Below are positions 11,835 through 62,656 of a stretch of 64,000 bases of DNA, one piece after another (position 1 is the stretch's first letter; every line of letters starts with the position of its first letter). The notes under the pieces are model-generated. The model was not told the DNA's origin, searched no databases, and saw only the letters and a program-made list of their open reading frames with translations. A program made the position numbers and the translations under genes. The DNA is from Proteromonas lacertae (taxonomy: Eukaryota). The DNA lies in contig NGBS01001188.1 of NCBI GenBank assembly GCA_002245135.1, positions 1 through 64,000 on the forward strand, written 5' to 3'.

Positions 11835-14800
11835 ATGAAATCGTTTTATAAAAATAATCCTTCTGTCTCTTCCCTAAGTATGTTAGTTATTATTATATTG
11901 TAGCTCCAAAAACTCCAAATAGAATAGTAGTGAGGCAACCTGTACATTTTGAATCAGCACGATTTGATTCTGCAAGAAAAATCCCAATTCGTCAACCAAC
12001 TGCTCCACGAAACGCAGACTCACTGAAATTAGAGTTTTTGGATGTTCCATCTCCATCTACTAGCTGTAGATCAAGTACCGTTGTACCATGTCCTTTAGAA
12101 TCTGTAAATCAGAATAATACTTGTGGTAGTACAGAAAAAAGTAAAATAATTGTTGCAAACAAAACTAAACATGAGAAAGTTCGATCTTTTATTATAATGC
12201 TTATGTTTACAATGTATAAAATAATAATAATAATGTAATTTGATAGTATTAATTAGTGTTTTAATTCTCGCAGTTTATACAATTGTGTTAGTGGTTGTAT
12301 GTAAATCCTATATAAAGAATCATTACAAAATCGAAATGAATGGTGATGTATTGAGTTTAAATTCATTAGAAGTTGGTCATTTTAATGGAGTTTACTCATT
12401 AGAGAATTTAAGGAAAGAATTAAAGAATGAAATAAAAGAAGAAGTGAAGAAAACAACATTAAACCTTCGAAATATGAATGAAAATGAAGTATAAAATAAA
12501 ATCAAGTATATATTTATATGTTTTATTAATAATAATAATATAGAAAATGAATTATTTACAAATGCAGTGATTGATGAAAAATCAAATTTATATTTAAAAA
12601 CAAAAGGATTATTAAGTGATGAAATAGAAATCGAAAAGAACAGTAATTTCAATGGAAATGTGAAATTTGGAAGTGTAGGTAATGAAGCTGCTGTAGAAAT
12701 CAATGGTAAATTAGAAGTGAAGAATGTAAAAGTGAAAGAAAAGATCGATTTGAGTGAAGCTACGATTTGAATATAATATAAATGATAAAAATCAAAATAG
12801 TCATGAGAAAGTCGAAATTGGTGAATTATCTGTTCATTCTTTGAACTATGCAACTGAATTCTGTAATATCACATTAAATGATGAAACAAATATAAACAAT
12901 ATTCTATTAAAAGGCAATACAATAAGTTCAACAAAGAATGATTTATACTTAAATACAATAGATCCAAAATGTAAAGTGATAATGAGTTCAAGTGAAATAA
13001 ATGGTAATTTGAAGAGTAATTCAATCAGTGTAGATAAAATCGTAATTAATAATAATGAGATGAATGGAATATCTTCAATCGATAGTGATAAAATCAATGT
13101 AAAAGTATTGAGTAACAATAAGAACTTAAATGAAAATGAAAATATAATATCTATAATCAACAATGTTGATATGAGTAACAAAGATATAAATAATATAAAA
13201 GAAATAAAAGCTACCTCATTAAACAGTGTTTATTTAAAAGTGAAAATGAAGATATAAAAGTATTAAATAATTTCGATATATCAAATAAAAATATAAAAAA
13301 TATAAAAGAAATAGTTTCAGAGCAAGTGAATGTAAAATGAATTAATCAATACAAATGGATTGATAAATGTGAAGAACGATTTAAGTTTAGTAGAATAACA
13401 ACATAAAGATGTTGATAATGTCATATCTTCAGAAATATCGAAGTTGATACTATAAGTGGTAAAGAAGGAGTAATACAAACCTATTGAAATAATAAACGAT
13501 ATGAATATCAAAGATCAATACTCTGAGTAGTAAAGTTATTCTAAGTACAACAGTTGGTGTATTGAATTTGAAAAATTATAATGATGATAATAGAAAGATA
13601 AATCTATTAAGTGAAATGGATGTAAATCAAAATGATATAAAGAATCTGAAATTATTGAATGTAAATACAATAGAGTTAGGAGAAATGAAGAGTAAAGACA
13701 ATAGTGATATGAGAATGTTAAATAATTTAGATTTATTACAGAATAATATAAACAATGTAGAAATATTAAATGTGAATAAAATATCGAGTATTTTACAGAA
13801 AATCACAGTTGAAAAAGAATTAGATTTAAAAGACTCTTTAACCACCAGTAAAAGTTTAATAAGTAAAGAGTTAAAAGTCAATACAATCAGTGTAAACTCA
13901 CCAACAGCAAATAGTTTTATATCAATAAAAGACAATATAGATATGAGTGAGAAATCATTAAAACTGAATGAATTAAATGTGACTAGAATAAATGGTATAA
14001 ATGGAAAAGAAATAACTGTTTTAAGTGATATAAAAAGTGATAAAAAGTTATCCATAAATACAGTCGCAGTTAATAATCTACAATCGAATGGTAATGGCGA
14101 TCCAATAAAAGTAACTTCCAATATTGATATGACTAATAAAGACATTAAGAATGTAATAAATATTCAAAGTGAAACTTCAACAATTACCAAAATTAGTACC
14201 AATACAATAGAACCAAAAAGTGGCACTGATGTTGAAGTAAAAGGTAATTTATTAGTAAGAGGACATCAAATCCAACTTGGAACAGCAACTATTGACTCTT
14301 TATCTGATCTAAGGTCAATAGCTGGATATGAAGGTAATTTATTAGTTGAATCAGATTTAGATATGAATGGAAAGAATATAAAGAATGTATTAAATCTAAA
14401 TGTTGGTAAAATTGGTGTATATCCTGCAAGTAGTAAAATATCAGTTGTTAATGATATTTTAATGAATAGTAAAGATATTGGAAATATAAAAGAAATGACT
14501 GCTGGAATATTGAATATTGGAACAATCAAAGTGGTTGGTCCTGGTTCAATCAATATGATTTCTTCAATAAATATGAATAACAATGATATAGTAGATATAA
14601 AATCACTTAAAGGAAAAGCCAATACATTAACAGTAGAATCTGATATAAAAGTAAGTGATGCTTATAAATTAACTGCAAATACAATCAATGTAAAGACGAA
14701 TAGGAAGTATCCTATCATCTCCATTAACTATTGATAACAATGTAGAGATAACTAAAACATTAAAAGTTAATGATATTACTTTTCGTACAGGAAATACTGT

Positions 14801-26689: not shown

Positions 26690-29183
26690 CATTTTGTTGT
26701 TGACTTCTGCTACTATTCTTCTTACTCTTTCGTTTATTATTTTGATTATTCTTTTTATTCTTATGTTTTGGTGTAGTATAAGATTCAGGTTTAAATGAAC
26801 AATTCTCTACTTCCAATTGTTTCTTTCTTTCTTCTAATTCCTTGTAATCTTTAGGTTTTGATAATTGACTCCATACATCACTTCTATTCTGAGTAACTTT
26901 ATCATATTTTGATTGTTTAGTATTAGGTGTAAATGGACAATCTTTCTTTAAATATTCTTGAGCCTTTTGTTCTCTCTTTTCCATTATTCGCTTATAATCA
27001 TTAGTTCTCTTCCATATTGGAGTATTCTCTTTATCATATGGATTAATCTCAGGGTGGAAAGTACATTCTTCATATCCTTTATATTCTAACTCCTGCTTAC
27101 GTTGTTCCATTTGATTCTGTATATTTTCATTACGATTATTACTGATAGAGAATAATCTGTCAAATACAGATTCTTCATTCCTACTTTCATCTAATGGAAT
27201 ATTCTCATTAATCTCAGGATGGAATGAAGGGACTTCTTTGTAGGAGTAATCTATATGTTCAGGTTGCGCTAAATATAATCTTTCATAAACATTCTTACCT
27301 GCTCGAATATGTAGATTTTTGGCTTTATTAACTCTTGGATGGAAAGTGCAATCTTCAATTTCTTTATTGGCTTTTTCTTTCTTTTTTTCTTCTAATCTCT
27401 TCTTATATTCTTTAGCAGCTTCAAAATTACGTTCAGCTACATCTTTATCTGTCTTTAAATACCTTCCACTACCATTTGTTTCATTTACTGATTTAATATA
27501 ATAATCATCGTTAATTTCTGGTGTAAAAGTACATTCTTCTAATTCAAATTCCATTTTAGTTTCTTCTAAATCATCATAATTCTTTCTACATTTATTCTGT
27601 CTTTCTTGAAAGTTGTCTTTGCCTTTTAGTAATTGTTTTGTCTTCTTTTTATTAGTTTGAGGCGTAAAACTAGGTTCTTCTGGTGGTTTAGGATTCTCAA
27701 TCTGTTTCATTGCTTTCTTATATAAATCAGCATATACATTCTTCTCTTTTCTATTTAAACTTTGGCTTCTCTTGTTAATCTGAGGATGAAATGTACCTTC
27801 ACTTCTTCCAGCATGAGAGTTATAATATTCATCGTAAAACTGATTACTATGAATTATATGACTTCTTTTAACACTTTGTTCAAGCCTTTGCTCGAAGGTA
27901 GTTGTTGGTGTGAATGATCTATTGATAGTTGGTGTATAACTGTTCTCAGTGTCTTTCATTCTAGCTATTTCTTCTGCTTCTATTTTGTTATGTTGAGATA
28001 TCTTTGCTTTCTCGTATAGTCTTACTCCTGCTGGTTTACCATCATCGTCATCTTCACTCATATGATATTCATTAATCTTTGGATGGAAAGTATATTCTTG
28101 TTCTGTTTGGGAATCTATATCATCTAATCTTTTGAATAAATCACTTCCTCTTGGCTTGTCTTTTAATACTTTTTCACGTTTTGGAACACTTAAATATCGT
28201 TTTTCTATTGGTATACGTGGTTTAGTGAATTTATAATTTACTGTAGTTGAAGGATGGTGAGTACATTCTAAATCTTCTAATTTCATTTGTAATTGTTTTC
28301 TTTTTTCTTCTTTTAATAATGCATTTTCGTATAAATCATTAGAAGCTTTCTATTGAAAGATTAATAATATTAAAAAAAATAATAAGTTTGTTATAAAGAA
28401 TAAAAATATAGTCGTTTCAGAAAACACAAGAGTTACGTTGATAATATGATGTATGTATAAAAATTAATAAGTATTATATATATAGAGAGTATATATACTT
28501 CTGGACTACGATTCTTTAACTTAGAACTGTTCACCTTTGGTTTAAAGGGTGTTTCATTCTTGATTTCTTGTTCTAACTTCTTTTGTCTGATTTTCTATTT
28601 TGATAAATATTAATTAAGCTATACTCTTGACATTTCTAATCTATGATGTAACTCTTCATATTCATTCTAATTAAATAATAAATAATGAAATTTAGATATA
28701 TACTCTTGTTATTTCGGATTTACAAGATGCTCTAGTCTTGGTTGTAGCATTCATAGTCACTGATGGAGATCTAAAATCATCATTATCATTAGACTGTCTT
28801 GTTAGATTCAATGGACTAGTCATAATTTTCTTCTTTTGAGCTGCTGGTGCAGTTACCTATACAATTAGAATCCTTATTATACAGATCTCTTAATGACGGT
28901 TGACTTTTTTGGTGAAGCCTAACGAAATATTATTGCAATGAATAATACATAATTGTTTTTAATAGGTGTCTGTTGTAGTTGTTGTGGATTATCACCTATA
29001 ACAGTTACAAAATTGGTTGATACTTTCTTCCTGGTTGTCAGGTCGTTGAATAGGTACATGCTGGTTATCTCTCTTGCCCTGATGTGGTCTTACAGCCATG
29101 TTTTCTTCCTCTCTATCAACAATTGGACTAGTTGATGGATTAGAAGCATCTTCTGAAGTCATGAGCTTATGAGGGGTTGGCAT
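26073..29183 (-). CDS. Repeat protein with [EC]xTF[HT]PxIN and VxERLY motifs and an acidic low-complexity tail; probably cytoskeletal
   Basis: About 9 copies of the motif (EYTFHPKIN, ECTFTPEIN, DCTFHPRVN, ECTFHPEIN, DCPFTPNT) in the 737-aa last exon. Several upstream exons start at MPTPHKL; exon boundaries only partly resolved. Confidence 0.75.
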
Positions 29184-30826: not shown

Positions 30827-31664
30827 ATGGATAATATATTCTTATGGTTGTCAGGAACTGCATTTGCCGGTGCGTATATAAAGAGTTGTGAATATTCTTT
30901 ATTTCATATAGTTTTAAATTTTTATATGATGGTTATGCATATAGTAGAACTGAAACAAATATAAGACATGTTGATGATGTTCCTGATACTATGCCTCACT
31001 ACCAGAAGATTAATGGAACAATTTTAGCTTCCAACCCATTGATGCATATGGGAGCTGATAATACCTTAGAACAATATGATAATACAATATATTTAGAAAC
31101 TAGAATTCAACAAATAGCAGAAGAACGAGAAGGAATAGTGAAAGACTTAAAATCGAATGAAAGTGTTTATTTATCCATTTCACCAGTATTTTCATTGAAA
31201 TTAATGAATAATGCTAAATGTACAGTATATACGAATGGAGTAAATCCTTATTTCTTATCATTAATGTCTCATCCGGTCAAATCTACTCCAATTATTACAG
31301 AGAAAGAAGAAATGATTGGCACTCCAATCCATCCACCAGTACCTACTACAATAGTGAAAGCTGGAAGTGAAAGAGTATATGGTGTTGGAGCTGGTGAAAA
31401 TGTGACAATTTATGGTGATTTAACGAGATATGAGAATGGATATTGTATTCAAGCATCTCCATATAGATTCTGTGTATAATCTTATATTGTATAATATCTT
31501 TAAAATAGCCTTTCTTGATTACTAATGGTAATAAACGTGAAGTAATTGAATATTTCCAGAATCAACAGTTTAATTCATACTTCATTGGCATGAGTTTATT
31601 AGCTGCTGGTGGTATATGTATGTTCTACAGACATAAACATCAAAAAAGTGTCCAAGTCTTATAA
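30827..31664 (+). CDS. GIDE-domain-like protein (MUL1/MAPL/SP1-like), two TM segments, no RING
   Basis: N-terminal hydrophobic exon, then ERVYGVGAGENVTIYGDL..CIQASPY..PFLITNG, then TM YFIGMSLLAAGGICMFY. Two short introns. Confidence 0.6.
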
Positions 31665-34334: not shown

Positions 34335-34476
34335 AATTGTTTTTTTTGTTGATAACACATTATTATTATTATTATGTAGTTTATATTTGTTTGTTAGTTA
34401 TTAATAAAAGGATTTTAATAAATAAGAACTTGAGAAAAAGCTTGATAATTTATTCTTCTTTCAATAATTAGAAGCA

Positions 34477-35267
34477 ATGGCGAGTATTTTTCTGTATGCA
34501 TCAGGCGCATCTTTATTATGTGCGTATAAAATAATGAATTAACAGTCAATAGTGCGAAATACTATTTTGATGGTTATACTTACATGAAATATAGGCAGAA
34601 CATCATAGAAGCAGATGAAGGTCAGACAGGTTTACCTCATTTTACCAAAGTACAAGGCAAAGTAGTCAGTGCCAAAGGAATGCTTCACAAAATATCTGAG
34701 AGAATTCTTCTAGAGTTAGATGGTTTAGCATATGTAGAAACTCGAGATGATTATAATAAACCTGTTTATACATCACTAAATGAGAATTTTTCAATAGTCT
34801 TACCGTATTTTTTGAATTATTGTTATAATAATAGAAATACTCATGTTAACAAAACATGTGAAGTATATACCAGAGGTTTGATCACCAACAATTTATCTTC
34901 AATCTCCAAACAAGTTGTTGATATTCCAATTACAGTTGTATTCCTTTATATATTATACATAATAGGATGATTCGGTTAAAGAAAAGATATACGGTATTGG
35001 CTTATTAGATGATATCACAATATATGGTGATTTCACAGATACTGATCGAAGAATCTCCATTAAAAAATCACCATATTATTTATGTGTATATATTTAATCT
35101 TTAATTAATAGCCTTTCGTGATTACTGATGGCTCCAGTGATCAAGTACAAAGATATTTTGTTGGTCAAGAATTTAAGTCATATTTGATTGGAACTTGTTT
35201 TGCTGGACTTGGTGGATTGTTATTATACTCATGGAATCGTACTAGACGTGGTAATAAATCTCTATAA
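34477..35267 (+). CDS. GIDE-domain-like protein, paralog 2
   Basis: Homologous to 30827-31664: DGYTY, PHFTKVQG, EKIYGIGLLDDITIYGDF, SPY, PFVITDG, C-terminal TM. Three short introns. Confidence 0.6.
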
Positions 35268-35429
35268 TTAAAATATGAATGTTGTAATTTAGTTTCTTTT
35301 ACAGTTCTTTTTTAAATTTATAATATAATATATTGTTGATGTATATTTTGTTTAATTGATGCTTGTTAAGTTTATAAATTAAAAAGCTTGATAAGAGCTT
35401 GACAAATTCTTTTTTATATTTTGAATGAT

Positions 35430-35758
35430 ATGTCATTTTTTTCAAAGCGTGCATCTGCCGTTTCACTGTTGCTTGCGTATGTAGTGCTGAATAAAACGAA
35501 AATAGCGCCAAATTTTATTGTGATGGTTATACTAACAAAATATACAGATTAAATGTTAAAGAAGTTGATGAAGATAAAATGAGAATAGCAAACTTTACAA
35601 AATTACAAGGTAAGGTACTATGTGCTGATATAATTCAACATAAAATATCAAATAGTATTAAAATCGAAATAGACAGTTATGCTTACTTAGAAACTCGTGA
35701 TAATGATTTTAAACCTGTATATACATCTTTAAATACAATTTTCTCAATATTAAATTAA
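35430..35758 (+). pseudogene. 3'-truncated third GIDE-like paralog (absent from the ORF track)
   Basis: After a 29-nt intron it reads FYCDGYTNKIYRLNVKEVDE..FTKLQGKV..AYLETRDNDFKPVYTSLN, colinear with paralog 2, then stops at TAA 35756-35758. Confidence 0.75.
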
Positions 35759-35794
35759 TACAAGTTTTTGCTTGAACTAAAAATCAGTTTCAAA

Positions 35795-37056
35795 ATGGGT
35801 GGTTGTATTACGAAGGTATGATCCATTGTTGTTATGTTTAGGATAATTATTATAGTCCTATATTCACATATATACCTCCCAAAAACGTATATAAAATAGA
35901 AATTGATATTTTATCAAATAGAATAGCACAATATCTTATATAACATATGCTTCATGTACAAGTATCGGGTACATGCATATGAAAAATGAAAATCAGGATA
36001 GAGGAGGAGTTTCACTAAATCCAGGAGGAGGAGGCACCAGATTTGTTGCATTTGTGTTTGATGGTCATGGTGAATTTGGTAGTGCTGTAGTAGAATACGC
36101 ACTAGAAGAATTCCCAGAAATTTTACACAAACATATCCAGCTTAGTTCAGTTAGACCACAATTTTATTTGCCACAAAAAGAAGTAAGGCCTCGTGAAGAA
36201 TCGCATAGTAGCATGGGAGTATATTAACAAAATTATTAATTATACTTAGGATTATTCGTCACTTAGTCAGAAATATACAAACCAAGATAGTAGCTGTAGA
36301 TTAAGCAGTAAAATAACCAATTCAACTCATATTTTGCCACTTAATAGTAATTTAGTCAATCCTTTACAAACTACTAACATCTCTGTATTACCTGCAAAAC
36401 CAAGAGCATTATCAACTCAAACCTTATCAAACTCATATACAGTTTCACCATCCAACAAACAAGAAAATACAAAAAATAAAAGATTAGAGAAAAGTATAAG
36501 TATAGATAAAAGAAACAAAAGCAAAAAAAGTATTTTACATGAATCATCATCATCATCAGGAGCAGCAGCAGGAGGAGGAGGAGAACATATAAAATATAAA
36601 GAAAGTCATCGATATCTATCACTAGATCGAGTAGTTCATCAAAGCAGTGGGAAATATCTACGAAATGACTTTAACACTGCATTTGAAACAGGTTCAAATG
36701 GAAGAAATTACAACAATCACAATCTATCTCCATCAGATTCAGTGAATAATTTGAATAATAACATCAGTTGTAACAATGAATATATGTATAATAATAATAA
36801 TAATACAATCAATGGAGATATTTTATGTGAGATAATGAAACATAGTTTTTTAGATTTACATAATAATATGATAGAAAATAGCAATGAAAATTGTTCATTA
36901 GAAATGAGCGGTTGTACAGCTACTTCTATCATGATTGAAGGAAATACGTTAATAAGTAGTAATGTAGGTGATAGTCGTGCTTTGCTATGTAGGAGAAATA
37001 ATGAAAATAAATATTTTGGTGTTCAAATAACAACTGATCATCGAGTGAGTGTACCA

Positions 37057-37090
<34 letters not shown>

Positions 37091-37686
37091 AAGGATTTAT
37101 TGAAAATTCACATCGATTTCCATCAAATGAAGGAGATATTATTATTGAGGATTAAAAAAAATGATCATTCAATAATATCTCCTTCATTTGATGGAAATCG
37201 ATGTGAATTTTCAATAAATCCTTTATTGTCAAATGATTTATATATATATTTATTTATATTATAAAATAGAAAGAAAGAGCTCGAATAGAAGAATGTGGTG
37301 GTTGTGTTTTTAAAGCTCCACATAAAGGAATAAAAGGTGAAGATCGAATGTGGGTAAAAGATTGCTTATATCCCGGTTTAATGGTTAGTAGAAGTTTAGG
37401 TGATTCAATAGCTCATGAAATTGGTAATATCACAATGCCAGATACTGTCAAAATGGAATTGACAGTTAATGATGATATCATTATTATAGGAAGCGATGGA
37501 ATTTGGGATGTATTGGATAATGATCAAGTTATTGATATTATTAATACATTGAGGAGTGAAGGAAGTGATGTTAGTGTGTATTGTAAAGAATTATTGAAAT
37601 TTTGTTTAGAAGGATGGAAAATAAGGAACGCAAGTGATAATATTTATATTACCGTTGTTATGTTGCATCATAATCAACTTATTTAA
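35795..37686 (+). CDS. Protein phosphatase 2C (PPM family), probably N-myristoylated
   Basis: MGGCITK start; ENQD, VFDGHG, SGCTA, SNVGDSRA, TDH..P/KERARIEECGG, GLMVSRSLGD, GSDGIWD and DNI motifs. Several introns, including 37057-37269. Confidence 0.95.
37087..37227. repeat. Perfect 57-bp inverted repeat with a 27-nt loop inside a PP2C intron
   Basis: 37087-37143 is the exact reverse complement of 37171-37227; preceded by a (TA)n run at 37058-37087. Confidence 0.97.
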
Positions 37687-45501: not shown

Positions 45502-48500
45502 ATGAACTATTTCTTCATATTCTTTTTGTCTATATGTATAAATTCAGTAAATATTGTTATAATAGGTATTACTGCTTCGATTGAGCAGAATGCAGAAAAG
45601 AACTCAACTGAAAGAGGTATAAAACAGAAAATGAAAGGATCTGGATTGAATATAGAATTACCAATCGGTGAGAATGAGGTTGTAAATGATGAAGCGACAA
45701 ATAGAATCGTCTCAGCTTGTGATGGTTCAGATCATATAGTTTCCCTTTATTATGAGACAGAAAATAGGTAATAGATTACTTCCTGACAAGATGAATGAAA
45801 ATATGAAAATTGAAGAATTCAGTTTATATTTAGGTGAAAAGAAGATTGACTTGTCAAAGCTGTTTAAATCAGAAGTAAAGGATGGTAGACAATCTACTAC
45901 AATATGTCTTGAAGAAGGTATTTATGAAATTAGTAAGAAGTGAAGAAAGAAAAGAAAGATGGTCATTAGATATTCTGAGGATTGAAATTGAAAGGTAAAA
46001 CCATTGCAGCAATAAATATGAATGATTTGAAGGAAGGAGAGGTTGTGAAAGTAAATATAGGAAGTTCTAAAGAAAAGAAGTCTTCTGTAAGACAATTAGT
46101 TAGCTATATTGTATTAGCAGAAAGTAGTGAATGGGGATATTCGTTTAAATCACAAGATGGTATTTCTTGGAATAATGAAGAGAATGATTGGATAAGTTAT
46201 ATTCCAACAGGTTATCCGATCAAAACCGCAATTACCACTTATTATCGAACTAAATTCATTCTTCCTGATATATCAGCAATGAATGGTCCAATCTTGAAAG
46301 TGAAATATACTGATGGTTTAATAGTTTATGTAAATGGAATAGAAATCTTTCGAAAGAACATGCCGATTAGGAGAAATAACTTCAGAAACCAAAGCCATCA
46401 AATCATTTTCTACAGTTATTGAATCAACAATAACAATTCCTCAATCAATAATCAAAAGTTTTGACAATTTTCATAGGAATAGAAATTCATAAAAGTGAAT
46501 CAAGTCCATTTAATCAAGAAGACAAATTCTCAGCTTCAATTGAAACAGTTGATAGAGGATTGTATTCACAAACAACAGCATCTAATGTAGATATAACAGT
46601 AAGATCACAAGCTGGAAATGTACCTACGATAGGAAATCTTCTAACTAACATGTTTTCTATAAATACAGGTTCATTGTGGAGTTACTTTAGATAGATTAGG
46701 AGCAGCAAAGTGGTTTCCAATGAATTTCAATTTTACATTTAGAAATCATGTAGCTAAGTATGTAAATCAATTTAGAATAAGTGGATGTTCAAATAATGAT
46801 TTTACTCATCCACAGAACATAAAGATATATGGTTCAGTTGATAGTGAGAATATAAATTGGATATTACTTTTTGAAAATACAAATTTGGGTTTATCAGTAA
46901 AAGATTGTAGTACTCTTTCAACTTATGCATTAAATCCGGTTAATAAAGCTTTTGAAAGTTATAGATTGGAAGTTATAACTACAAATCAATATACTACAGG
47001 TGAAACGCAATGGGGACATTATATTCAATTCAAATTATTTATATTAGATGAAAAACCACTTTCCATATGTCAAGCAAATGAGAATTATCCTTCTACTAAT
47101 ATTGGAATGACTTCAATTGCTTATTGTGGAAGTGGATATAAAGAAGTAACATGTGGAAATGGTGGATCATTTGAAGCTGAAGATGATCATGGATGTGATA
47201 ATGATTTAATCAAAAGTGAATGGCAATATACTGATTCTGCACCATCTTCTGATAAATGGAATAATGAATATATCGATGGAGATAATGGGTGGATAAAGAA
47301 ATCTTCATCATTTCCTGATTTTACATCATCTATTAGATATTATCGAAATTATTTTATGATAAATGATTTATCAGTAAGTGGATCACCCAAACTGAAAATC
47401 ACATATCAAGATGGTATAAAGATATATATAAATGGAAATGAAATATTCAAACGAAATTTGAATGGAAATATAATAGTTCCATTTGCTTCAGCAACTGAAG
47501 AAACAATATTAATTCCTTTACCTGTTTTATTGAATGGAAGAAACATAATTGGAATAGAAATCCATAAATCTGATTCATCAGGTGTAGATCCGATTGATTG
47601 TTTCATTAGAATATATGAAATTGACAATAAGTACAGTAACAACATTAGATACAGTAAATGTGGATGAAATTGGTTTAGAATCTCTGAAAACGGGAAAAAC
47701 ATGTATAGATAAAGAGATTTGGATAGAGTATTAGTATTTAGTGATGTTAAGCACTGATCAAAATCGTGATTTTTGTAGTATTACAATAGAAGAGGCGAAA
47801 AAAAGGAGAGTATTTTCCATTTTATATAACATACAAATTCAATGAATATAATGCTTTTTATTTCAATGAATTTAAGATAAGTGGTTGTAGTAATAATTAT
47901 GATAATCATCCAAAGAATATAAAGATATTAGGAGCAACAGATAAAGATCATCCAGAATGGGAAGAACTATATTCCAATACTGAATTTAGGATTAAAGGTA
48001 CAGCAAAATTAGAACAGTGTAATGAAATTAAAACCTTTCCATTAAGAAATGTAAGAAAATCATATGAAAGTTACAGATTAGAGGTTGTTGATACACTGAA
48101 AATTATGATGCAGAATTGTATGGAAATTACATTCAATATAGATTGTTTATATTAAATTCAATTTCACTTCCTGTTTGTTATAGTTATGATGGTTTTGAAA
48201 AAGTATTTGCTGGTGAAACATCAATAATGAAATGCCAAAGTGGATATAAAGAAAGAAGATGTTTAGAGAATGGAATATGGGAAGATGCAATAACAGATCA
48301 TGAATGTAAAATGGTAAATTATTATATCTCAACCAAACCATATCATCAAAATAGTATTACATTAGAAAAAGAAATAAAATCCTTATCAATAACAATCCCA
48401 GGATTAACATATAGTGGAAATACACTTACATTGAAAAGTGATGAAGAATTAGAATATGTTAAAACAACAATCATAACCTTCAAAGATGATTCAACAGCTG

Positions 48501-51500
48501 CTGTTTATGTGAGTGTATTGAGAAATGAAGTGAAATGTGATTATGGATTTGAATCAATCAATTTATTTGAGATGGAATATGATTTGAGATTGAAATGTAA
48601 TATTCAACCATTTGTAAGTAAAATAGAAAATTTACCTAGTGGATTGAAATATGGTAATAATGGGAGAATAACAGGCCGAATAACCGATGTAAGTAAAGAA
48701 ATAACAACGAGAGTGATTCTTCAATCTAATAAAGAGTTTGATATAACAATAGAATGGAAAAAAGGAGGTAGTTTAGAAAAAGGATTAGAATTTGTATTAT
48801 GGAGTAGATCAGAACAAGATGGAATGACTGTTGATAATGATTTTAAAAGTAAAAGTTTAAATGAAATGTGGTTAAAATTTGAAAATGGTTATTATGATGT
48901 AAAAGATCCAATGACAATAACAAATGCAGAAATTACATATTCTAATACTGCGCCTTCATGTTTAACAGATTATTGGATTCCATGTCAAAGAGTTGTAGCA
49001 AGAATAAGAGGTTATTTATATATTGATGAAGAAGGTGATTATGTATTATCTGGAAAATCTGATGATAGTCAAAAATTTGCTTATGGAAATTTTGAAGTAG
49101 AAAGATATACAACAAATAATTGGGATGATGAAATAGACTTTCCAATTCATTTAGCCAAAGGATATCACACCGTTGGATATTTATCATGGGGTGGAGATTA
49201 TGGAAATGGTTTTATAGCAAATTACAAAAAGTCAGGAGGAAGTAAGTCAAATATTAATAATATAATGTTTAGTGGTGGATTTCTATTAACTCATTTATCA
49301 TATGGAGTTAATACAATAATATATGAAAAAGGAGTGAGTAAAACATTAATACCATCTTATGAAGGATATCCATCAAAATGGTCAATGAATCCTTCAATAG
49401 CTGGTTTAAGTTTGAGATTAGATGGAGCATTAATTGGATTTCCAACAACATGTGATAATGAGTTTAAATCAATTGAGATAAGTTCGAATGGTGAAATTGA
49501 TATTTCAAAAACAAATATTCAAATAATCTGTTATAATGAAAATGACAAATTGAATAAAATAAATGGATTATTAGTGAAATATTATACTGCGAGTAGTGTG
49601 AAAATTGATGTATTTGAAGAACCAGAATCAGCTGTTGATTCAAAATTGATGTTAGAAAGAATAGAAACTTCATCATTATTCCTTTCAAAGAATGAAGAAT
49701 TATGGAATCATTTATTTATAGCAGATTATGTAGGATATTTATATATAGAAAGAAGTGGAAGTTATAAACTGAGATTGAAATGTTATGACTATTGTAAAAT
49801 GATATTAGGATCTGATATAGTGTTTGAAGGAATAGGAAGTGGTTTACATGAAATAGATAAAGCAATGGAATTAACAAACCAACTATACAAATTAAGAATA
49901 GTTTATAGCAAAAGTGGAAATGATAATATGAAAGAATTAGAATTATTATATGAAGAAGATGGATTATATAAATCAATTCCAAAAGAATGGTATTACACTG
50001 ATCAACCATATCCATTCATTTATTCATCAATAAATAGTAAATATTACATTAATGATGAAATATCAAATACAATAATTAATCAAAATGTTGTATTAGAAGG
50101 ATATAAATATTCAATTGAACCATCATTACCAATTGGATTATCAATATCTGAATTGACAGGTGAAATCTCAGGAGTAGTAAGTGAAATAGACAAACAGAAA
50201 GCTTATACAATAACAGCTGAGAAAGATTCCTCAAAATATTATTCAGAAATAATAATGGAAGTAAATGAACAAGTAAAACCACAAATTGCATATCCAAATA
50301 ATGGTTTGAGAGGAATAGTTGGTAATAGTATTACATTATCACCATCCTCATCCAATGTAGTATGTGATATATTATCTATATTAACACCAATTGAGAGTAT
50401 ATCTATTGATTCACAAGGTGTTATAACAGGTAGAAGTGATGAACCATATTCTGGAACAATGCAAGTAAAATGTACAACTTATAATACAATGACTATTGAT
50501 GTGAAAATTGAAATAGCTTGTGGTGAAGGAGAAGACTTTCTAATAATGGATTATTTAATCAAAAGTCAACCAGAGAGTGTGGAATCTAGAAATATTGAAT
50601 GGAGAAAGATCAATATATTCATCTTCAAGTGAAAAATCATTAGAAGCTGATAAGATTTATACATTTATGAAATGTATTACAAAAGAGAATAATCAATTAA
50701 AAATAACCTCAAATTCCTATTTAGGTGGTTGGTATAAATTGTTTTATGAAAATCGAAATATGTTTAAATATTCCTCATTCTTCAGAGATGAAACACTTGC
50801 AATTAATATGATTCATTCAAGTAATAAACCAGAATTAAGTTACGAATCAAGCTTATTTGAATTGAGCAATGAAATCTATTATGAGTTTTATCCATCAATT
50901 AAAAATGGAGGAAAGATATTTGAAATAACAAATGAAGATAATTTACCAGTTGGAATGAAATTTGATAAAGAAAGTGGTTTAATATCTGGAATTCCAACAG
51001 AACCATCTGAATCAAAACAAATCAAAATAAGAGTGAAGAATATGCCAAGTGGAGAAGTGAGTGATGAATTAACATTGACATTTTCAAGTGATGTTTGTAA
51101 GAAAGTATTCTTTGAAGTAAATTTATTCATTCGAAGTGGTGATGAAGGATTTATAACATACAAGATGAAGAATGGAGAAAAAGAAATTCAATTATTTGAT
51201 AAGAAAGTTGGTGAGAATAAGAAATATTTCTGTGAAGATGGAAGAACATATGAATTGAGTTTAGGAAGCACAGGAAATGAAATATGGGAATATAGTGAAA
51301 TGAGATTACAAATATTACATGATGGAGTAGTGTTATTTAGAGGAAGAAATATGGATGGAAAAAGTGAATCTACAGTGAAAATAAATACAAAAAATCTAAT
51401 TCCATTTAAAAATCCAATGAAATATAGTGAAGAAATTCAACAAAATAATGATTGGAATGAATTATCCTATGATTCAAGTAAATGGATAAGTGTGAATGAT

Positions 51501-54500
51501 TTACCCTCATTTAATGCTGATAAATTGGTGAGATATTATATTGAATCATTTGAATTTAATGAAGATGTAAGTGATTTATCAATGTTTTATTTATCATTTA
51601 CATTTTCAAATGGAGGAATTCGAATGTTTATGAATGGAATAGAATTTTACAATAAATATTTACCAAAAGAAGTGAGAAGTGAAACAGTAGGAAATTCTTA
51701 TACAAAGAGTGAAAGAAAATATTTTGTAACAGCTCCAATAACATTATTAGATAAGAATGGAAATAATATTCTGGGAATAGAATTTCATAAATCTGATAAA
51801 AGTTCAACCGAAATAGATGAATTTAAAATAAATGAAATGTATTTATTATCTGGAATAGATAAATGTTATTTTGATAAATATAGCTATTTTGAAGTTGGAA
51901 GAGTAAGTGAGCAATATCCATCACTTGATGGAGAAAAAGTTGAAAATGCTTTTAATTATATTTTAGACAATAATAAGAAAGCATCATGGAGTGAAACATC
52001 TCCTTTATATTTTCAATATTCATTCTATCCTGAAGAATCAAGATGGTTTAATGGATTACAATATCGAACAGGTGATAATGCCAATCGTCTGGTCAAAACA
52101 TTTGAAACATATGGAATTAAAACCTATTCAAATGAAGCTGATACTGAATTAATGAAATTATTTGATTATTCTGATACTACAACCAAAAGATTAGTTTCTG
52201 GTTTTAAATCACAATACTTTTCATTAGGAAGTGAAAATTCCCTATCATTCAATGGAATTAGAATTAAGATAAATGAAGGTGGATCTGAAGGTGTAGATAC
52301 AGGTGGTGTTTATCCATATAGTTGTCGATTATCCTGTTTTACAGATGGAGAATGGAAATCTGTTGCATATGGAGAATATAGAAAAATCAAATGTGGAGTT
52401 TTACCAAATGCATTTATAACCCGAAAATGTGGAGATAATGGAGAATGGGAAGAAAAAATAGATGATAGTAGTTGTGGAAAGAAATGTCAAGTGAGATTTT
52501 ATAATAAGCTAGTCGAAACATATCAAGGTAGATATGCTGAAATAAAATGTCCAAATAGAGAAAATAAGAAATGGAGAGGATATTGTCCATTTGCAGAATC
52601 ACCAGAATTTATTGATATAATAGATGAATGTGTTAATATTAAATATCCAGATAATTATGTTACTCAAAGTGGAAAAGAAGTCAATATAACTCCAGAAATA
52701 TCAGAAAATGGACCAAAATTATCATTTAGTATAGAATCTGGTTATAGCATTTTTGAGATAGATTCATCAACAGGTGTTATAAGTGGAAGAATTCCATCTG
52801 ATATATTAGAAGGAAAAGAATATGGAATAGTAATAACAGTAATGCCATTTGATGAAAAATATATAATAACGATTAAAATAAAAGAAGAATCAAATAATGA
52901 AGAATTTTTGAAATTGATAAGTGAAGGAAATGAAATAGCTGAAATAACCAAAACATATAAAATTGATATGAGTAAATGGAAAATTCCTGAATCTTTATCA
53001 TTCAAGAAATTAACGACACTTGGTGATTATTCAGTGATAATGAAGAATTATATAAAAGAAAATGAGAATAATATATTGAGTTTATTTGGTTTATTAGAAG
53101 ATAAAAGAATAGAACATTTACATTTGATAATCGAATCTTATGATGGAAAAGAGAATAATCCATTACTTAAAACCTCAAATGATGGAATATTTTTAGAATT
53201 GAAAAATTGTTATCTGTATGATGTAAAATTGAAATTAAATCCAAATATCGAAATGAATCAAGATGAAGATAAAACATTTGGATTATTAAGCAACTCAATG
53301 GAGAATATGATAATGATTCATGTCGGAATCTATTTTGAAGGAAAGATCTCAATAAATTCAATGAATTATATCTCAACATTTGGTTTAATAAGTGGAATGA
53401 TAAAGAATAAAGAGGGAAAAGAAGTGAGTGGATTATTTGTGAAAGGAAATGAATATAGTTTTACATCTACCAGAAATGATAATAATCATGTAGTTCATGA
53501 AGGTTTAATGTTTGGATCAAGTGATAATTTGATAATTTCATACAGTTATAGTGATATAAATATTCATGGTAATATAGATAATAAATTGGAACATAGTCAG
53601 CTAGTCTTGACATGTAGCTCATTACTACAACAACATCATCATATTATGAAGTTGTTATCGATGTTTTGTTATTGTTAGAGAAATCGTGAATATTAAATCA
53701 GATAGTTGGACATTCTTTAGTCCATTTGTTTGCCGTGGAAATAATCCAGTTTACATAGATGAATGTTGGAGTGATATAAAATTTGGTAAATTAGATGGAA
53801 CAATGGATGTTATAGGATTTAGAGGTCATTTTGAAGATGATGGTAGTGATGCAAAGTTGGAATTATTTAACAGTTATAATAACTGGGAATTTACACAATC
53901 AACAATTGATGAAGTAAAAATAAATTGTTTAGCAAGATATTCAACCAGTAGTACAATAATGAAGAATGTATATGTTTCAATATCAGTTAATTCTGATGAA
54001 ATAACAGTTAATAGAATGGTAAAAATAGGTGAAGGAAATAGTCCAGATGTAATTAATAATGTATATATTCAAAGACCAAATAGAATTGATGTAGATGGAA
54101 TAGATTTAATAAAACTACTTGATGAAACATCTGATATAAAAGAAAAACCATATAAATATTTGAATGGATTTTATATAAATAAAGAAAAATCAAGATTATA
54201 TTATTCCATATTACCTCAATATGATGGAAGTAGAATAATTGATGAGTATGGAATATTAGAGAATGTTGATATAACATTTGATGAAAATAATAATCCATTT
54301 TATGCCAAAGGCAAATCAATTTGGTATAGAAATGAGATAAATTTAAATATAATATACAAAGATAATATGAAAGATAGTTATAAGTTATATTTATTATTAA
54401 AAGAAGGAAATGAAGAAATTAACGTCTCAATAAGTGAAAATGAGTGTATAACTGTAGGAGACGAAACAACAGTGAAAAGTTGGTCAAGTATTGATTCATC

Positions 54501-57500
54501 TGTTAATTCAATTACTCAAACACTGAATAAAGATTCATGTAGTTTAAAAGCATATAATAAATTCAATTATGATATAAATGGAATAACAAATGATAAATCT
54601 GAAATAATCGAAATAATAAATGCTGAAATAGAACCAGAATATGAAACTGATTTAAAAGAGAATATCGATTTAGAGAGTGAATTTTATATTCAATTCTCAT
54701 TACCATATCCATCTAAAATAGAATTAACCAAAGTAACAAATAAAGATACAAATGAAGTAGGCAATGGTTTAATAACTGTAGAAGGAGAAGTTGAAATGAA
54801 ATATGAATTGAATAATTATTTATACAAAATGAAATTGAAAAGTGGAAATGTTTTAATTCCAACCAATGTTGAATTTATATTAAAAGTGATATTTGATTAT
54901 AATGGAAATAAAAACAAAGAAATAGAATATACAATCAAAACAATTATTCAACCAATATGTGCAAGTTCATTTAAATATCCAGAGAAGAAGAATGTAATGA
55001 TAATAGGTAAAGAAATAAATATATCTCCTGAATATGAAGGCTATGGAGGTATATTTTCAATCATAGATGATTCAATAAAATCAAAATTAGAATCTTATGG
55101 AATTACATTTGATGAAAAGACTGGAAAATTATCTGGAAAAGCAAATTCAATATTTGCTGAAATAGAGATAGAAGTAAAAATGAAGAATAATAAATATGAA
55201 TCAACCACAAAATTATCAATAGAAGTAATATATCCAAAACCGAGTGAATTAGAATATAAAGACGAATATAATGTATTGACAGTAGGAATAGAAGTAAGAA
55301 TAGAACCATTAAAATGGGATAAATCAGTTGATGCCAAATTTTCATATGAATCATCAATGAAATTAGAAGATTATAATTTAAGATTGAATGTTGAAAATGG
55401 TATAATAAGTGGAATTCCAAGTAAAGATTTAGCTAAATCAACTGATGTGAAAATAATCTTGAAGAATAAAGCTGGAAGTATATCATTTCCATTGAAACTG
55501 ATGATAGAAAAAGAACCTGATTATTCTTTTAATCGATTAATAAAATCTGATGTAAAATCAATCATATTAGAAAGATCTTATGTTGTTGATATGAAATATT
55601 GGGAAATACCAAAAGATATAAAATGGAGTTTATTAGAAGGTAAAAATGAAGAAACAAGAATCACAATCGAATGTCGAAATTCCAATGAAATTCAATTATT
55701 TAATGAATTGGATGGTGTGGTTCTAAAACATTTGAGATTTGTTATAAAACTAAAAGGAGATATTAATGGAATGAGTGCAATATCAATAAAATCTAATTCG
55801 ATGTTTAAATCCATGTCAAACAGTTATTTGTATGATATAGAAGTGAAAATAGAAAATGATTTAACATTTGAAACAGTTAATAATGATGAGAATATAAATG
55901 GATTATTATTGAATTCCATAATAGATTCAACTTTATTACATGTTGGAATAATAAGTTCAAAAGAAATGATAATCAAAACTACTGGTAATGAAATGAAATT
56001 TGGTTTAATAAGTGGAAAATTGTATAATAATATAAATGTAAATAAAGTAGTGAGTGGATTGTTTATAAAGTTGAATAAATATTCCTTTGAATCAACAAAT
56101 GGTAATATGAAAAGTGGTTTATTATTTGGTGAAGTAAAAGATAAAAGATTATTTTATAGTTATATTGATGTAAATGAAATGAATTTGAATGTTAAAAATG
56201 GAATTCATAGTTTGATGATTGGAAATAGTGATAGTGATTATGAAATAAGTAAAAGTTTTGTAATAGTGAGAAATTCTTTGAATATAAATAATTATGAAGA
56301 TGTTGAAATTAATGTTTATAATGGAAATGAAAATATAAAAATGAAAGAATGTTTCAGTGATATAAAAATAGGTGAAATGAAAGGATTATATTCATCATCA
56401 TTATTAACAATGAATATGAATGGAAAAGAACTTGTTAATAGTTATAACTATATTGAAATAATGAAAGATATTCCAAATAATGTGAAAATATATTTAATAT
56501 CCAAAGATTCCATTTCATCAATTATTAACATCTTCATATCAATAAGTAAATCAGAAAATGTTAAAATCAATGATGATGTTATAATAACAATGAATAGTAA
56601 ATCTGTTGGTGAAATTGAAAATGTATATATTGAAAAATCTAAAGATGTAAAAATAAAGAATGATGAAAATAAGATTGAATTGATTGATGATAAATCTGAT
56701 GTGAAAGAAAAGCCATATAAATATTTGAATGGATTTTATGTGAAGAATGATAGATTCTATTATTCAAAAATGCCTAGATATGAGAATGGAAGAATAATTG
56801 ATGAATATAGAATATTAGAGAATGTTGATATAACATTTGATGAAAATAATAATCCAAAATATAGCAAATCAAATGATATATTGTATTTGAGTGATATTCC
56901 ATTATCAAGAATATACAAAGATTACATTCCTGATGATGGATTTAATCTTCATTTATTATCAAAAGAAAATGAGAATAAAATATCAATTGATGTAAAACCA
57001 TCTTGTTTTAAAATAGATAAAGATTTCATACTGGAAATCAATACATTAGAATCAATAAACAATATAAAAATATCAGAAGATTGTTTAACTGGAATGTCAA
57101 ATCATATTGAATTGAAAATAACATCAAATGAAAAGACAATAATAATTCCAATGAATATAATTGATATTAGTAAAGAAGCTGTTATAAAAACAGAACCAGA
57201 AATAATTGAAGAGAATTCTCAATTCTATTTGATATTTGATGATATTACATGTAATGCAACCAGTTTGAAAGGAAAATCTGAAATAATGAGTTTAAATAAT
57301 AATATAGAAATCAATGATGAAATCGATAATACTTATAGTAAAATTGAAATTTCAATAAGTAAAATTTCCACAACTAATCAATATTATGATAAAACCGAAG
57401 AAATATGTTTGGATTATTATTTTAATGGATATGAAGAAATGAAGAATAGATGTATGAATTTCACAATAAGAATTGAACATAAATTCCAACCAACTCTTCC

Positions 57501-60251
57501 TCCTCCTCCTTTAATATTAACTGAATTACCATCTTATCATATTGAAATAGTGGAGACAATAAATGAAATAATACCTGATTCAATCTGTACAGTTCAAAGC
57601 ATGAATGAAGAAGCAAAAGAATTGAATTTCAAACCATCTATAAAGAATCACATACAAATTGAAAATACAATTCTAAAAGATAAAGCAATCAATTTAAATT
57701 CAATTCCATTTGCAACAGAATCTTTAACATCTGAATTTACTTCCAAAATCTTAGCAGAATCAGAGAATGAAGTTATTTCGTTTAGTGAATCTTATTCAAT
57801 GATAATGGAAAAATATGAAATACCAACAATCAACAATATATATAAGAATAGATTTTGGAAATAACAAATTGAATTTACAATTTTCAATATATAAATTAAG
57901 AGAAAGATTATTGAATGAAGAAGATAAAAATAAATATTCAATGAGATTATTTGGTGATTTGAATAATGTGATAATTGAAAATGCTGAAATCAATATTTAT
58001 ATGAAAGAAAATACAAATGAGATAGTAATAAGAGAATGTGGAATATTTGGTTCATTAAAGAATTCAATATTAAAGAATATAAGATTAAAATTCTTGAACA
58101 ATATTCGATTTGATTGTAATTTTAATTCGACATTTAATGGCTTAATCAGTGGTAAAAGTGAAAATGTGACATTTGAGAATGTTGAAATAGAGTTTTATAA
58201 AGATAACATCAGAACCTTGGCAATCGAGAATCAAGATTCAAACATATTTGGAATGATAGTTGGTGTTGGAAATGATATAAGAATGATAAATTGTTTTGTA
58301 TTTGGTGATATAATGACAGTGATAAATAATGGAAATAATACCAAAGGCAATAGTAGTATATTTGGTGGATTAATAGGAAAATGTGAAGGAAGTTGTGAAA
58401 TAGATAAATCTTATATTCAAGTGAATAATATTCTATTGTATCAAAGTATGATATTTGGTGGATTAATTGGTTCATTAGAGAATGATAATGGTGAAATGAA
58501 AATAATAGAATCATTTGTATATATTGAAGATGGTTTAAGAATAGGAGTAGATAAAAATCAAAAAGAATTTGTTTATGGTAGTTTAATTGGTGATTCCAAC
58601 ATATGTAAAGTATTGATAGATAATAGTTGGGCAATATTCATAACAATGGGAATAGAAATAAACACAACAAATACTAATTTTGGTGGAATGATAGGACGAA
58701 TAGGTGATATTAGTGTTGAAAATACAATAACCATAACAAATTCTTCAATTCAAATGCCAATTGGTCATAATACATTTATATTCAGAAAAGGAAAAGATGA
58801 AATAGAAGAATCTCCAAATATTGGATTTATATTTGGAACAAATATAACAGAAAATAAATCTTATAGATTAGATCATACAATGGCTTATATAGAATCATGT
58901 AATAGTAGTAGTGAATTCTATTGTATTTCTCCACAAATGTATTATCAACCAAAAGGAAAATATCCATATATTCCTCTAAAAAGAGTATTATCTCCAACAG
59001 AATATAATTATTGTGGTGGATCTGGAGCATTAAGATCAGGTGGTGTATTTGTAACTCTTGAAGCTCAAGGAAATGATTTCTGTAACTCATTAGGTAAAAC
59101 AACATGTGAAGGATATAATGGAATATGTTATGATGATTTATCTTATAGTCCATGTAAATTACCAAAAGAAAGAAGTGAATTAAGATTATCAAAAGATCCA
59201 ATATATATCTCATCAAGTAAATTATTATGTCCAAATAACTGTTCAAAACATGGAGTATGTGTATATGGAGAATGTCGATGTTATCCTGGTTTTACTTCAT
59301 TTGATTGTAAATATCGAAGTTGTCCATTTGGAAGTCCAATATCTAATCCATCAAATGAATATGATAAAGATGATCGATTATATTATGAATGTTCAAATCA
59401 AGGAAGATGTAATAGTGAGAATGGATTATGTGAATGTTATAGTGGATTTGAAGGAAATGCTTGTCAAAGAACGAAATGTGCAAATGAATGTTCAAATCAT
59501 GGAATATGTATGACATTAAATGAAGTTGAATTAAGTAAAGAAAAAGGAAATATAAATGATAATGATGAAAACAATTATGATATAAATTATATAAAGAAAT
59601 ATGAGAAATGGGATAAAGAATCAATTCAAGTATGTGTTTGTGATAAAGAATATCGAGGAGTTGATTGTTCAATTCGAAAATGTCCTTATGGATATTTGAG
59701 TGAAAGTGAATGTGATTCTGTTGCTCAAAGTGAAATAACAATTACATATTCTCAAACAACATCTAAAATTTCCACAATTGATGATAAAGTATATGTGAAA
59801 ATATACAGATCCATTTAATCGAGTATGGTTTACAAAGAGTTTTAGTATAAGTTCAAGTGAAGAATGGTTAAATGCTTTAGGATCATTACCTCCAGAAACA
59901 TTATCAATAGATGAATTAACAGCTAATAATGGTGGAAATGAAATAATAATTCATATTATATTCTCAAAACATCAAACAGGAAGACAATATCCAATCCAGA
60001 TAATTGGAAGTAAAGAAATAAAAGAAATTCCAGAATTGAAAGATAAAAAGAATGGATATTATCATTGGATAAATCCAAATTTGAATAATATTCTTAATAC
60101 TGAAAATGGAATATTTAAATATGAAATGGATTATACTCAAAGATCATCTGAATGTAGTAATAATGGAATTTGTAATACAAAGAGTGGAATATGCAATTGT
60201 TTTGATGGTTTTAGTGGAATATCTTGTTCTGAAGTGAATGAAAGTTATTAA
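45502..60251 (+). CDS. Giant secreted multidomain protein (~4900 codons): galactose-binding-like jelly rolls, F5/8-like, PA14-like, He_PIG-type Ig repeats, GLUG-like region, C-terminal mastigoneme-type EGF module; about a dozen frame breaks
   Basis: Signal-like MNYFFIFFLSICINS. YYRTKF..YTDGLIVYVNGIEI..IGIEIH three times; ARIRGYLYIDEEGDY..SDD and ADYVGYLYIERSGSYKLRL (PA14-like); LPxGL..TGEISG/SGLISGIP Ig repeats; FGGLIG repeats; CPNNCSKHG..ECSNQGRC..CSNHGIC..ECSNNGIC. ORFs abut on one strand and no introns were recognised. Confidence 0.8.
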
Positions 60252-61266
60252 ATATTATTGATTATATTATTATTATCTTATATAAATCATTTATCTTGTA
60301 TTGTCCTTTTCTATAACATAATAGAATGAATCTAAGATTAATCTTCGATTGAGTTTGATTCTATTTGTTTCTATTGTTTTATTGCTTTTATACCTGTTAC
60401 TATGACTTTTCACCAGAATCCCTTACTGTAATATGTTTTATTGTAGACATGAACAATTTTGATTATTTTTTATTTCTTATTCTCATATATACACTCTCTT
60501 TTCTATTTTTATATAAACACTTTATATCATACAAATTATGAGTTTATAAAAACAAAATAAATAACATATATATCCATTCATGTTTTTATTATTCTATCTA
60601 TGCTTAATGATGATTTAAAGAGAAAAATTAAAAATGATGAAAGAAACGGCTAAATATTTATAAATAGAAAAGTATTTTTGCTAAATTTACTTGTAAATGA
60701 TGTATTATGATGATAGTTAATAGATGATCGTGAAGTATGGTGATGGTTTTATTATTACAGAATGATTAAATGCAGAAAGAAACATATTTCAAGTGTAATT
60801 CATACTAGACTTGCATGATGATAATATGAAGATGTCTAAATGATATGTAAATTAATAATGATATGATTTGTTAGTAATTATGATGATAACCTGAAATTGT
60901 TAATTTGTGTAAGATGGTGTGAGAATATGAATGATCAAATATTCTATTTAAGATGTATTAAAATTAGAGTATAATATGTGTTATTTTTGTAAAGTAAATA
61001 ATTTGTTAAGACATTTTGATTATCTATACCATTTCTTCAATGTTATTGGAAAAATAACACCTATAATTACGTAACATTCAATTAAGATGAAAAATACAAA
61101 AACAGGTCGAAATTATTCTGAATCATTATCTGTTGCATATAGTAGTGTAGAATAATTAGTAGAAGAACTTTTGTATTGTTTAATTTTCTTATGTTTTATA
61201 TAGGTGAAAAGAAGAAGGTTATAAAAGAAGTACTTATTGCAAATATGTAATTATAGGTTCATTTGG

Positions 61267-62336
61267 TAATAATATTGACAGGTTATGGTGCTTTAAATAA
61301 GTTAATGGGTAAAACAGTTTATACTTCAAATAATCAATTAGGTGGTTCAAGTATAATGTATAGCAATGGTCTATCTCATTTGGTAGTAAATAATGATTTA
61401 GAAGGTGTAGAAAAAGTAATTGAATGGTTAGAATTTGTTCCAAAAACCAAAGAAGATCAATTAGTTCCATATATTTTGAATGATAAAATTGAAAGAGAAA
61501 TAGAATATGAAATTCCCTCAATTCCATCAGATCCTCGTTTAATGTTAACTGGTGTAGAAACAGAATCAGGTTTTAAAAGTGGATTCTTTGATAAAGATAC
61601 TTTTATAGAAACATTAGGAGGTTGGGCAAAGACTGTAATATGTGGAAGAGCGAGATTAGGTGGATATGCATGTGCTATAATTGCAACAGAAAATCGTACA
61701 ATTGACTGTATAATCCCAGCTGATCCAGCTACACTTCAATCACAAGAATAAATAATCCATCAAGCTGGTGGAGTATGGTATCCAGATAGTGCATTTAAAA
61801 CAGCAACAGCTATTAATGATTTTAATAGTGAGAATTTACCATTATTTATATTTGCGAATTGGCGAGGCTTTAGTGGTGGTGATCATGATATGTTTGAAGA
61901 AATCTTGAAATATGGTTCTCAAATAGTTGATGCTCTTGTTCATTATAAATATCCAATTATAATTTATTTACCACCACATAGTGAATTAAGAGGTGGAGCT
62001 TGGGTGGTATTAGATTCAACAATTAACAGTGATATGATTGAAATGTATGCTGACACATCGTCAAGAGGTGGAGTATTAGAACCAGCTGGTACAACTGAGA
62101 TAAAATATCGTATTGGTGATATATTGAAAACAGCTCATCGTTTAGATAAAACTTTACAAGAATATGATTTAGAATTATGTAATAATACAGAATTGAAAGA
62201 AGAAGAAAAGAAAGTGATATTAGAAAAGATAAAAAGTCGTGAAGAGCTATTATTAACTACTTATAGACATATCGCAGAATCATTTGCTGATTTACATGAT
62301 ACTCTAGGTAGAATGTGTGAGAAAGGAGCAATAAAT
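61267..62336 (+). pseudogene. ACC: Acetyl-CoA carboxylase carboxyltransferase fragment, truncated at both ends, with an in-frame stop
   Basis: IILTGYGALNKLMG, SNNQLGG, GFFDKDTF, WAKTVICGRARLGG, IPADPA, QAGGVWYPDSAFKTA, FANWRGFSGG, ELRGGAWVV, RGGVLEP and FADLHDT. TAA at 61749-61751. No ACC sequence upstream, and homology stops after KGAI. Confidence 0.9.
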
Positions 62337-62656
62337 AGTCGTTTTAATGGTATTAGAAAGAAGTTTATAACGAAGAATGTAGAATCCAATGCTAGTGAAG
62401 ACACTAAAACATCAATTGATAGTCTTTTTAATGTTGTTAATCATTTAAATAAGAATTCAATGGAAGTTAATATTGTTAATATAAGAAATGCTTTAAGAAA
62501 GAAATTTACATTTCAATAATTAAAATTATTGTTATTATTATTTCCAGATTTTCATTTTTTTTGTTATTAAATTTACTCTTTTTTCTTTTTTAAATTAATT
62601 CAAAAAAAACAAATAAAAATGTTTAAGTGAAGATTTATTAATAAAATGGTAATAAA

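Follow-up and report, generated by a model that had tools for sequence, protein, structure and literature searches.

Gene content and setting of the locus

The window, by which we mean the whole 64-kb stretch of DNA that was analysed, has a GC content of about 26%, carries predicted introns of about 30 nt with GTAT...TAG ends, and harbors He_PIG Ig-like genes and a Coa1 domain, a combination compatible with Blastocystis or with its relative Proteromonas; the GC content suits Proteromonas lacertae equally well. With reference to the literature, introns of about 30 nt are described in Blastocystis (PMC5608401, PMC3129679), and cadherin-like and Coa1 domains appear in the lists of Blastocystis as well as of Proteromonas (PMC12129017 Table S5). 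The Blastocystis downstream motif was noticed near only 2 of the 27 predicted gene ends in the window, which makes a human-type subtype improbable, and this motif of the human subtypes is described as likewise rare in tortoise strains and other stramenopiles (PMC12129017). From 36000 to 64000 the window displays a strong one-sided GC skew, with nearly all of the predicted genes there on the plus strand. At 45566-60248 (plus strand) lies a very large gene region for a surface protein, with He_PIG, PA14 and EGF domains; it is read in several frames and has no canonical introns at the shifts, suggesting either a gene in decay or errors from indels. CPSF2 is flanked by three paralogues of a short gene to which no family was assigned (30855-31660, 34470-35260 and 35420-35760, plus strand); two of them are 69% identical in DNA, and the third, apparently truncated, lies just before the PP2C gene. 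The CPSF2 of the window has relatives at 81% and 46%.

The feature under study is a long hairpin inside an intron of a PP2C protein phosphatase gene (Table 1). The two exons bordering this intron match adjoining positions of the Pfam PP2C profile (69-143 and 146-248), and the limits of the intron (GT...TAG) were inferred from homology, as its excision restores the spacing between the DH and ERARIE motifs that is found in the intact PP2Cs P0135 and P0136. The preference of the gene finder was a parse with two introns, of 37 nt and of 42 or 50 nt, separated by a 134-nt exon. It was rejected on account of the damage to the PP2C, which it either truncates or extends by about 45 residues while deleting conserved ones, and it uses non-consensus sites.

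Table 1. Coordinates of the PP2C gene, its hairpin intron and the parts of the insertion within the window.
Feature	Position	Strand	Remarks
PP2C protein phosphatase gene (host)	35795..37686	+	PF00481 on both main exons; start codon approximate (by eye)
Ordinary intron of the PP2C gene, 31 nt	36219..36249	+	Predicted
PP2C exon upstream of the hairpin intron	36250..37056	+	Relatives P0283-P0286 70-71% identical
Hairpin intron, 213 nt, GT-AG, phase 0	37057..37269	+	Homology spacing; same site interrupted in relatives
(TA)15 tract	37058..37087	.	Extends from the 5' splice site; no longer TA tract occurs in the window
Left arm, 57 nt	37087..37143	+	Putative fold-back copy, judged from the asymmetry
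Cryptic AG	37092..37093	+	At an ordinary intron distance (37 nt) from the 5' splice site; stem predicted to bury it; its use truncates PP2C in most parses
Candidate fold-back priming microhomology, 9 nt	37140..37148	+	Complementary to 37169-37177, register shifted by 3 nt
Spacer (loop), 27 nt, single-copy	37144..37170	+	A8 run; imperfect internal pairing
Right arm, 57 nt	37171..37227	+	Part of the putative 95-nt captured segment 37144-37238
One-sided tail, 11 nt	37228..37238	+	Cryptic GT, non-consensus, at its start
TA-rich 3' flank with TAG acceptor	37239..37269	+	Putative ancestral intron = flank plus leading G
Last PP2C exon	37270..37686	+	Relatives P0133 and P0287 at 78-79%; P0134, P0288 and P0289 at 52-53%

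The protein search with the upstream exon returned one cluster, P0283-P0286. All four of these proteins break at the same codon as the PP2C of the window and end in Val plus a stop, one codon past the splice site. The intron is therefore present in this relative, without a long TA tract at its start, and so predates the long TA tract of the window. Short-read contigs would normally be broken by a perfect hairpin that exceeds the assembly word in length. The upstream exon was found on 8 (P0283) plus 17 (P0284) contigs and the last exon (P0133) on 25, with a longest contig of 5688 nt common to all, which suggests that both exons of the relative lie on the same unbroken short-read contigs. As the counts and the longest contig agree and the contigs are apparently unbroken, this close relative, which has its intron at the same site, probably lacks the hairpin, as judged indirectly. 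The 80 PP2C loci kept from metagenomes were all 32-47% identical, with no orthologue among them, and no PP2C locus was found in the prokaryote or viral contigs searched.

Structure of the hairpin intron

The original prediction of a perfect 57-bp stem with a 27-nt loop in a 213-nt PP2C intron was borne out by the inverted-repeat scan of the 64 kb. The inverted repeat is mismatch-free, whereas the runner-up perfect repeats with spacers of at most 300 nt reach 15 bp (the TA tract itself) and 14 bp (the longest non-TA repeat). The fold of the 213-nt intron has a free energy of -102.6 kcal/mol (z = -20.6), and none of 200 dinucleotide shuffles was as stable. The hairpin is real in the assembly and well beyond chance. 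A further claim, that the TA-rich flanks could extend the stem, did not hold, since the left tract is predicted to pair mostly with itself (9.7 expected pairs within itself versus 3.4 with the right flank).

The shortness of the other introns was confirmed on ab initio gene-finder predictions, which are not RNA-derived. Out of 114 introns predicted in the window, 34 passed a filter of GTAT...TAG ends and a GC content of at most 22%. These have a median length of 33.5 nt, and 32 of them measure 25-40 nt, the other two being 149 nt and 214 nt long. The 214-nt prediction is probably intergenic, because a stop codon lies inside its span. The 149-nt prediction (28350-28498, minus strand) has no internal AG and no stable stem, only a small TA hairpin at its start, and the same repeat family lies on both sides of it.

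Read from 5' to 3', the hairpin intron consists of a G, (TA)15, the left arm, the spacer, the right arm, the 11-nt tail and a 31-nt TA-rich flank ending in TAG. The tail lies beyond the right arm only, and an 11-nt TA run borders the arms-plus-tail unit on each side. Since arms and tail together are bounded by TA, and the arms alone are flanked by no duplication, the natural unit is a 95-nt single-copy segment (spacer, right arm and tail) joined to a reverse copy, 57 nt long, of its middle part. Together with one G, the 3' flank amounts to 32 nt, as against the local intron median of 33.5 nt. A reading of the A8 run in the spacer as a poly(A) tail was dropped, as the 9 nt after it and the 11-nt tail stay unexplained. 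No exact C or D box of a box C/D snoRNA occurs on either strand, and the Rfam snoRNA matches fell far below threshold.

Composition and probable coding origin of the arm

The arm is richer in GC (24.6%) than the short introns (13.6%), and its G+C content is unevenly spread over the codon positions, at 8, 6 and 0 of 19 (permutation p = 0.0038). This pattern matches that of the ORFs of the window (0.35/0.31/0.145). The codon-position score of the arm was reached by 11 of 3000 dinucleotide shuffles and by 2 of 99 non-coding windows; for the 95-nt unit, 5 of 3000 shuffles and 1 of 46 non-coding windows scored as high, and the unit ranks at the 16th percentile among coding windows, themselves part of the training set. 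The arm does read open, as had been noted, and this is no evidence by itself, since 71% of shuffled arms are open in some frame; for this reason it is the codon periodicity, not the open frame, that is informative. The suggestion that the arm was captured from another gene thus gains support from its coding-type codon signature, and a coding origin is fairly well supported on these compositional grounds. The coding strand is ambiguous, as nearly equal scores (-107.7 and -105.9) were obtained for the two frames with common third positions.

The source of this sequence was sought in several collections. It has no match elsewhere in the 64-kb window, exact arm patterns gave no match in metagenome, viral and prokaryote contigs, and blastn of 37087-37240 against phages and plasmids gave chance-level matches only (E of at least 0.01).

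A lead to the possible source came from the Ig-like genes, by way of a motif, after the peptide was already in view. No stop interrupts the plus-strand frame in the 31 codons that make up spacer, arm and tail, and this frame scores best against a profile of the eight Ig repeats of the window, at 6.3 bits. This score was reached by 14 of 3000 shuffles, by 17 of 1518 overlapping coding windows and by 5 of 252 non-overlapping ones. The sum of the best Ig scores was reached in 6 of 600 trials for the plus-strand frame and in 303 of 600 for the other frame, and pairwise comparison of the insert peptide with the Ig repeats gave E values of 0.005 and 0.063. When the profile was enlarged with bacterial repeats, the score of the insert fell to 3.5 bits, a value reached by 14 of 252 windows. 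The top-three Ig test was not significant (59/600), and the best single match in the window lies outside the defined repeats. The insert peptide has no Pfam match to an Ig domain and no usable Atlas match; the Ig gene itself, as an Atlas query, returned He_PIG clusters, all under 0.9. Taken as a whole, the resemblance of the arm to the He_PIG repeats is weak, with p of about 0.005-0.06 depending on the control, and we regard an Ig-like gene as source of the insert as a lead with about even odds.

Proposed origin of the insertion

We read the geometry of the insert (two arms around a spacer, a tail on one side only, and TA bordering the whole at either end), its coding-type composition and its short inner complementarity as the mark of a recent, one-off event in which a TA tract received about 95 nt of coding DNA and a 57-nt fold-back copy, now carried as a tolerated passenger; this is the reading that we favour, with moderate confidence. 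A break would have arisen in the TA tract with which an intron of 32 nt, an ordinary size, began. Templated synthesis on another gene, perhaps one for an Ig-like surface protein, would have copied in about 95 nt of coding DNA, after which the new strand would have snapped back on the short inner pairing (37140-37148 / 37169-37177) and primed a reverse copy of 57 nt, before microhomology in the TA tract allowed the ends to be rejoined. What snap-back priming should leave behind is present in the DNA, namely a 9-nt inner complementarity, a 27-nt single-copy spacer and a copy ending inside the templated segment, with the 11-nt tail uncopied. The identity of the arms over 57 nt indicates that the copy is either young or homogenised. 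In the pre-mRNA the stem is predicted to form, to conceal the inserted AG sites and to reduce the distance between the splice sites from 213 nt to 72 nt, and the insertion may have been tolerated for this reason.

Snap-back priming is described for alternative end joining (PMC5728401). In SD-MMEJ, or polymerase theta-mediated end joining, a short inverted repeat likewise primes a fold-back that yields a longer repeat, and the ends are rejoined by microhomology; its products are nevertheless short and copied from beside the break, whereas in the present case another gene seems to have supplied about 95 nt, and the copy measures 57 nt (PMC5728401). Four-point template-switch mutations similarly give a perfect hairpin in a single event and without selection, but that model covers local rearrangement only, and the sequence folded here is foreign to a 30-nt intron (PMC5453318). 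As for the repair machinery, Ku70/80 domains are absent from all eight Blastocystis proteomes listed and Ku is kept in P. lacertae (PMC12129017 Table S5), and a polymerase theta-like domain is reported in four of the eight and also in P. lacertae (PMC12129017). The absence of Ku would favour microhomology repair if the organism were a Blastocystis. The hairpin probably belongs to a known kind of mutation, as a young passenger, with one addition that is partly demonstrated, namely that the sequence which folds was captured from coding DNA. As such, it would be a record of how sequence is gained in a short-intron genome, by capture of foreign coding DNA at a TA tract followed by fold-back.

Alternative explanations

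Against templated insertion, it should be noted that Penelope-like retroelements yield the same geometry. The insert could be the stub of such an element, or a piece of host mRNA moved by its reverse transcriptase (RT), in which a tailed truncated copy follows an inverted truncated copy at a (TA)n target. An inverted copy, a one-sided tail and a (TA)n preference are described for these elements, and the Naiad/Chlamys stubs share all three with the insert (PMC8557442). The 11-nt TA run on either side of the unit agrees with this, and RT domains are reported in five and GIY-YIG domains in three of eight Blastocystis proteomes (PMC12129017). However, the tail measures 11 nt as against the 30-40 nt described, and, unlike those stubs, the insert has neither a second copy nor an RT in the window (PMC8557442); the RT scan covered 33 ORFs. 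There is no hammerhead core on either strand and no Rfam hammerhead match, although Naiads are also without one, and the words 'Blastocystis' and 'stramenopile' do not occur in PMC8557442. We consider this explanation unlikely.

A working intronic hairpin-RNA locus, in which the spliced intron would be diced into siRNAs that silence the gene of origin of the arm, seems very unlikely. The predicted fold does place a long stable RNA duplex in a region that is presumably transcribed from the host gene, and the 57-bp perfect duplex fits two or three siRNAs. The coding origin of the arm recalls the young hpRNAs of Drosophila, whose arms match their target genes; in those of Drosophila simulans the arms derive from the coding DNA of another gene and lie inside an existing transcript, as here, but small RNAs, Dicer dependence and a target are features described for them, and the present stem is shorter and intronic (PMC10317233). 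RNase III is found in all eight, and PAZ and Piwi in seven, of the eight Blastocystis proteomes, and P. lacertae has all three; however, one RNase III domain does not necessarily amount to a Dicer, and RdRP is absent from all eight Blastocystis proteomes. The word 'Dicer' has no occurrence in the first 12 of the 33 supplements of PMC5608401, 9 of these 12 being without text. There is also no sign of conservation, as judged indirectly, and no second such locus in the 64 kb. Rfam gave no family at gathering score; its matches to miRNA models of plants and animals lie below threshold, depend on structure only and are of a generic hairpin type, and literature searches on RNAi in this lineage returned no paper. 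The fuller version, a newborn hpRNA gene of a Blastocystis-like gut protist in which a mirrored piece of an Ig-like surface-protein gene sits in a housekeeping intron, with siRNAs that would silence that large family and a stem that would aid splicing, is in our judgement of very low probability. If small RNAs are made from the stem, they would point to endogenous RNAi acting on surface-protein genes in this lineage.

TA tracts and hairpins are error-prone, and one arm might have been added by template switching during amplification or sequencing. This artefact reading is in keeping with the several frame shifts, without canonical introns, of the nearby large gene, and with the protein collection, in which none of the 10 window proteins tested is present. 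Nevertheless, an exact return to the gene on both sides requires two switches, the 95-nt foreign unit would still have to be explained, and the surrounding long ORFs are unbroken, which leaves such an artefact highly doubtful.

It was also proposed that the fold-back shortens the effective length of the intron. This holds only in part, as 213 nt are reduced to 72 nt in the predicted structure and three of the four internal AGs are hidden inside the left arm. Internal stems are likewise described in the long introns of other short-intron genomes, those of diplomonads and Trichomonas, and in Giardia they bring the splice sites to within 35-45 nt (PMC6679479). A stem selected to serve a short-distance spliceosome, as in Giardia, Spironucleus and Trichomonas, is nonetheless highly improbable. 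The residual distance between the splice sites (30 + 42 = 72 nt) is still about twice the local 25-40 nt, so that, unlike in those genomes, the norm is not restored, and the lineage is another one (PMC6679479). A self-hairpin predicted for the (UA)n tract would engage the 5' splice site in pairing (unpaired probability 0.02-0.2), and the perfection of the copy argues for a single event over gradual selection. Moreover, a fold of only -6.9 kcal/mol was obtained for the 149-nt intron predicted nearby, and since that intron is almost structureless, long introns here do not seem to need stems. Under the templated insertion that we favour, the effect of the stem on splicing would be a side effect and not a selected function. 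The intron is a natural test case for whether this spliceosome measures linear or folded distance.

Finally, a MITE with 57-bp terminal inverted repeats targeting TA, as the original prediction had offered, is extremely unlikely and not supported, for although the 141-nt size, the perfect inverted ends and the TA surroundings would suit it and Tc1-like and MULE transposase domains are reported in some Blastocystis proteomes (PMC12129017), the arms are not bordered by any duplication 2-11 nt long (...AT on the left, GT... on the right), the ends are asymmetric with a coding-like tail that prolongs one arm in frame, and the insert is a single copy in the 64 kb and has no similarity to the dispersed repeat of the window.

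Repeats and duplications in the window

Segmental duplicates were noticed at 2759-3913 / 8919-10073 and at 4143-6399 / 12005-14262, with 99.7% and 93.9% identity, respectively; they sit in a cluster of repetitive Asn-rich ORFs without a Pfam family. The dispersed repeat, of about 0.9 kb, is present in two inverted copies (1277-2107, minus strand, and 62690-63557, plus strand) that are 87.6% identical, and it contains a 77-aa ORF remnant without a Pfam match; it is possibly a decayed transposon, unrelated to the hairpin. Adjoining it is a C-terminal fragment of acetyl-CoA carboxylase (61257-62516, plus strand), which has an in-frame stop at 61749-61751 and is likely a piece of a pseudogene.
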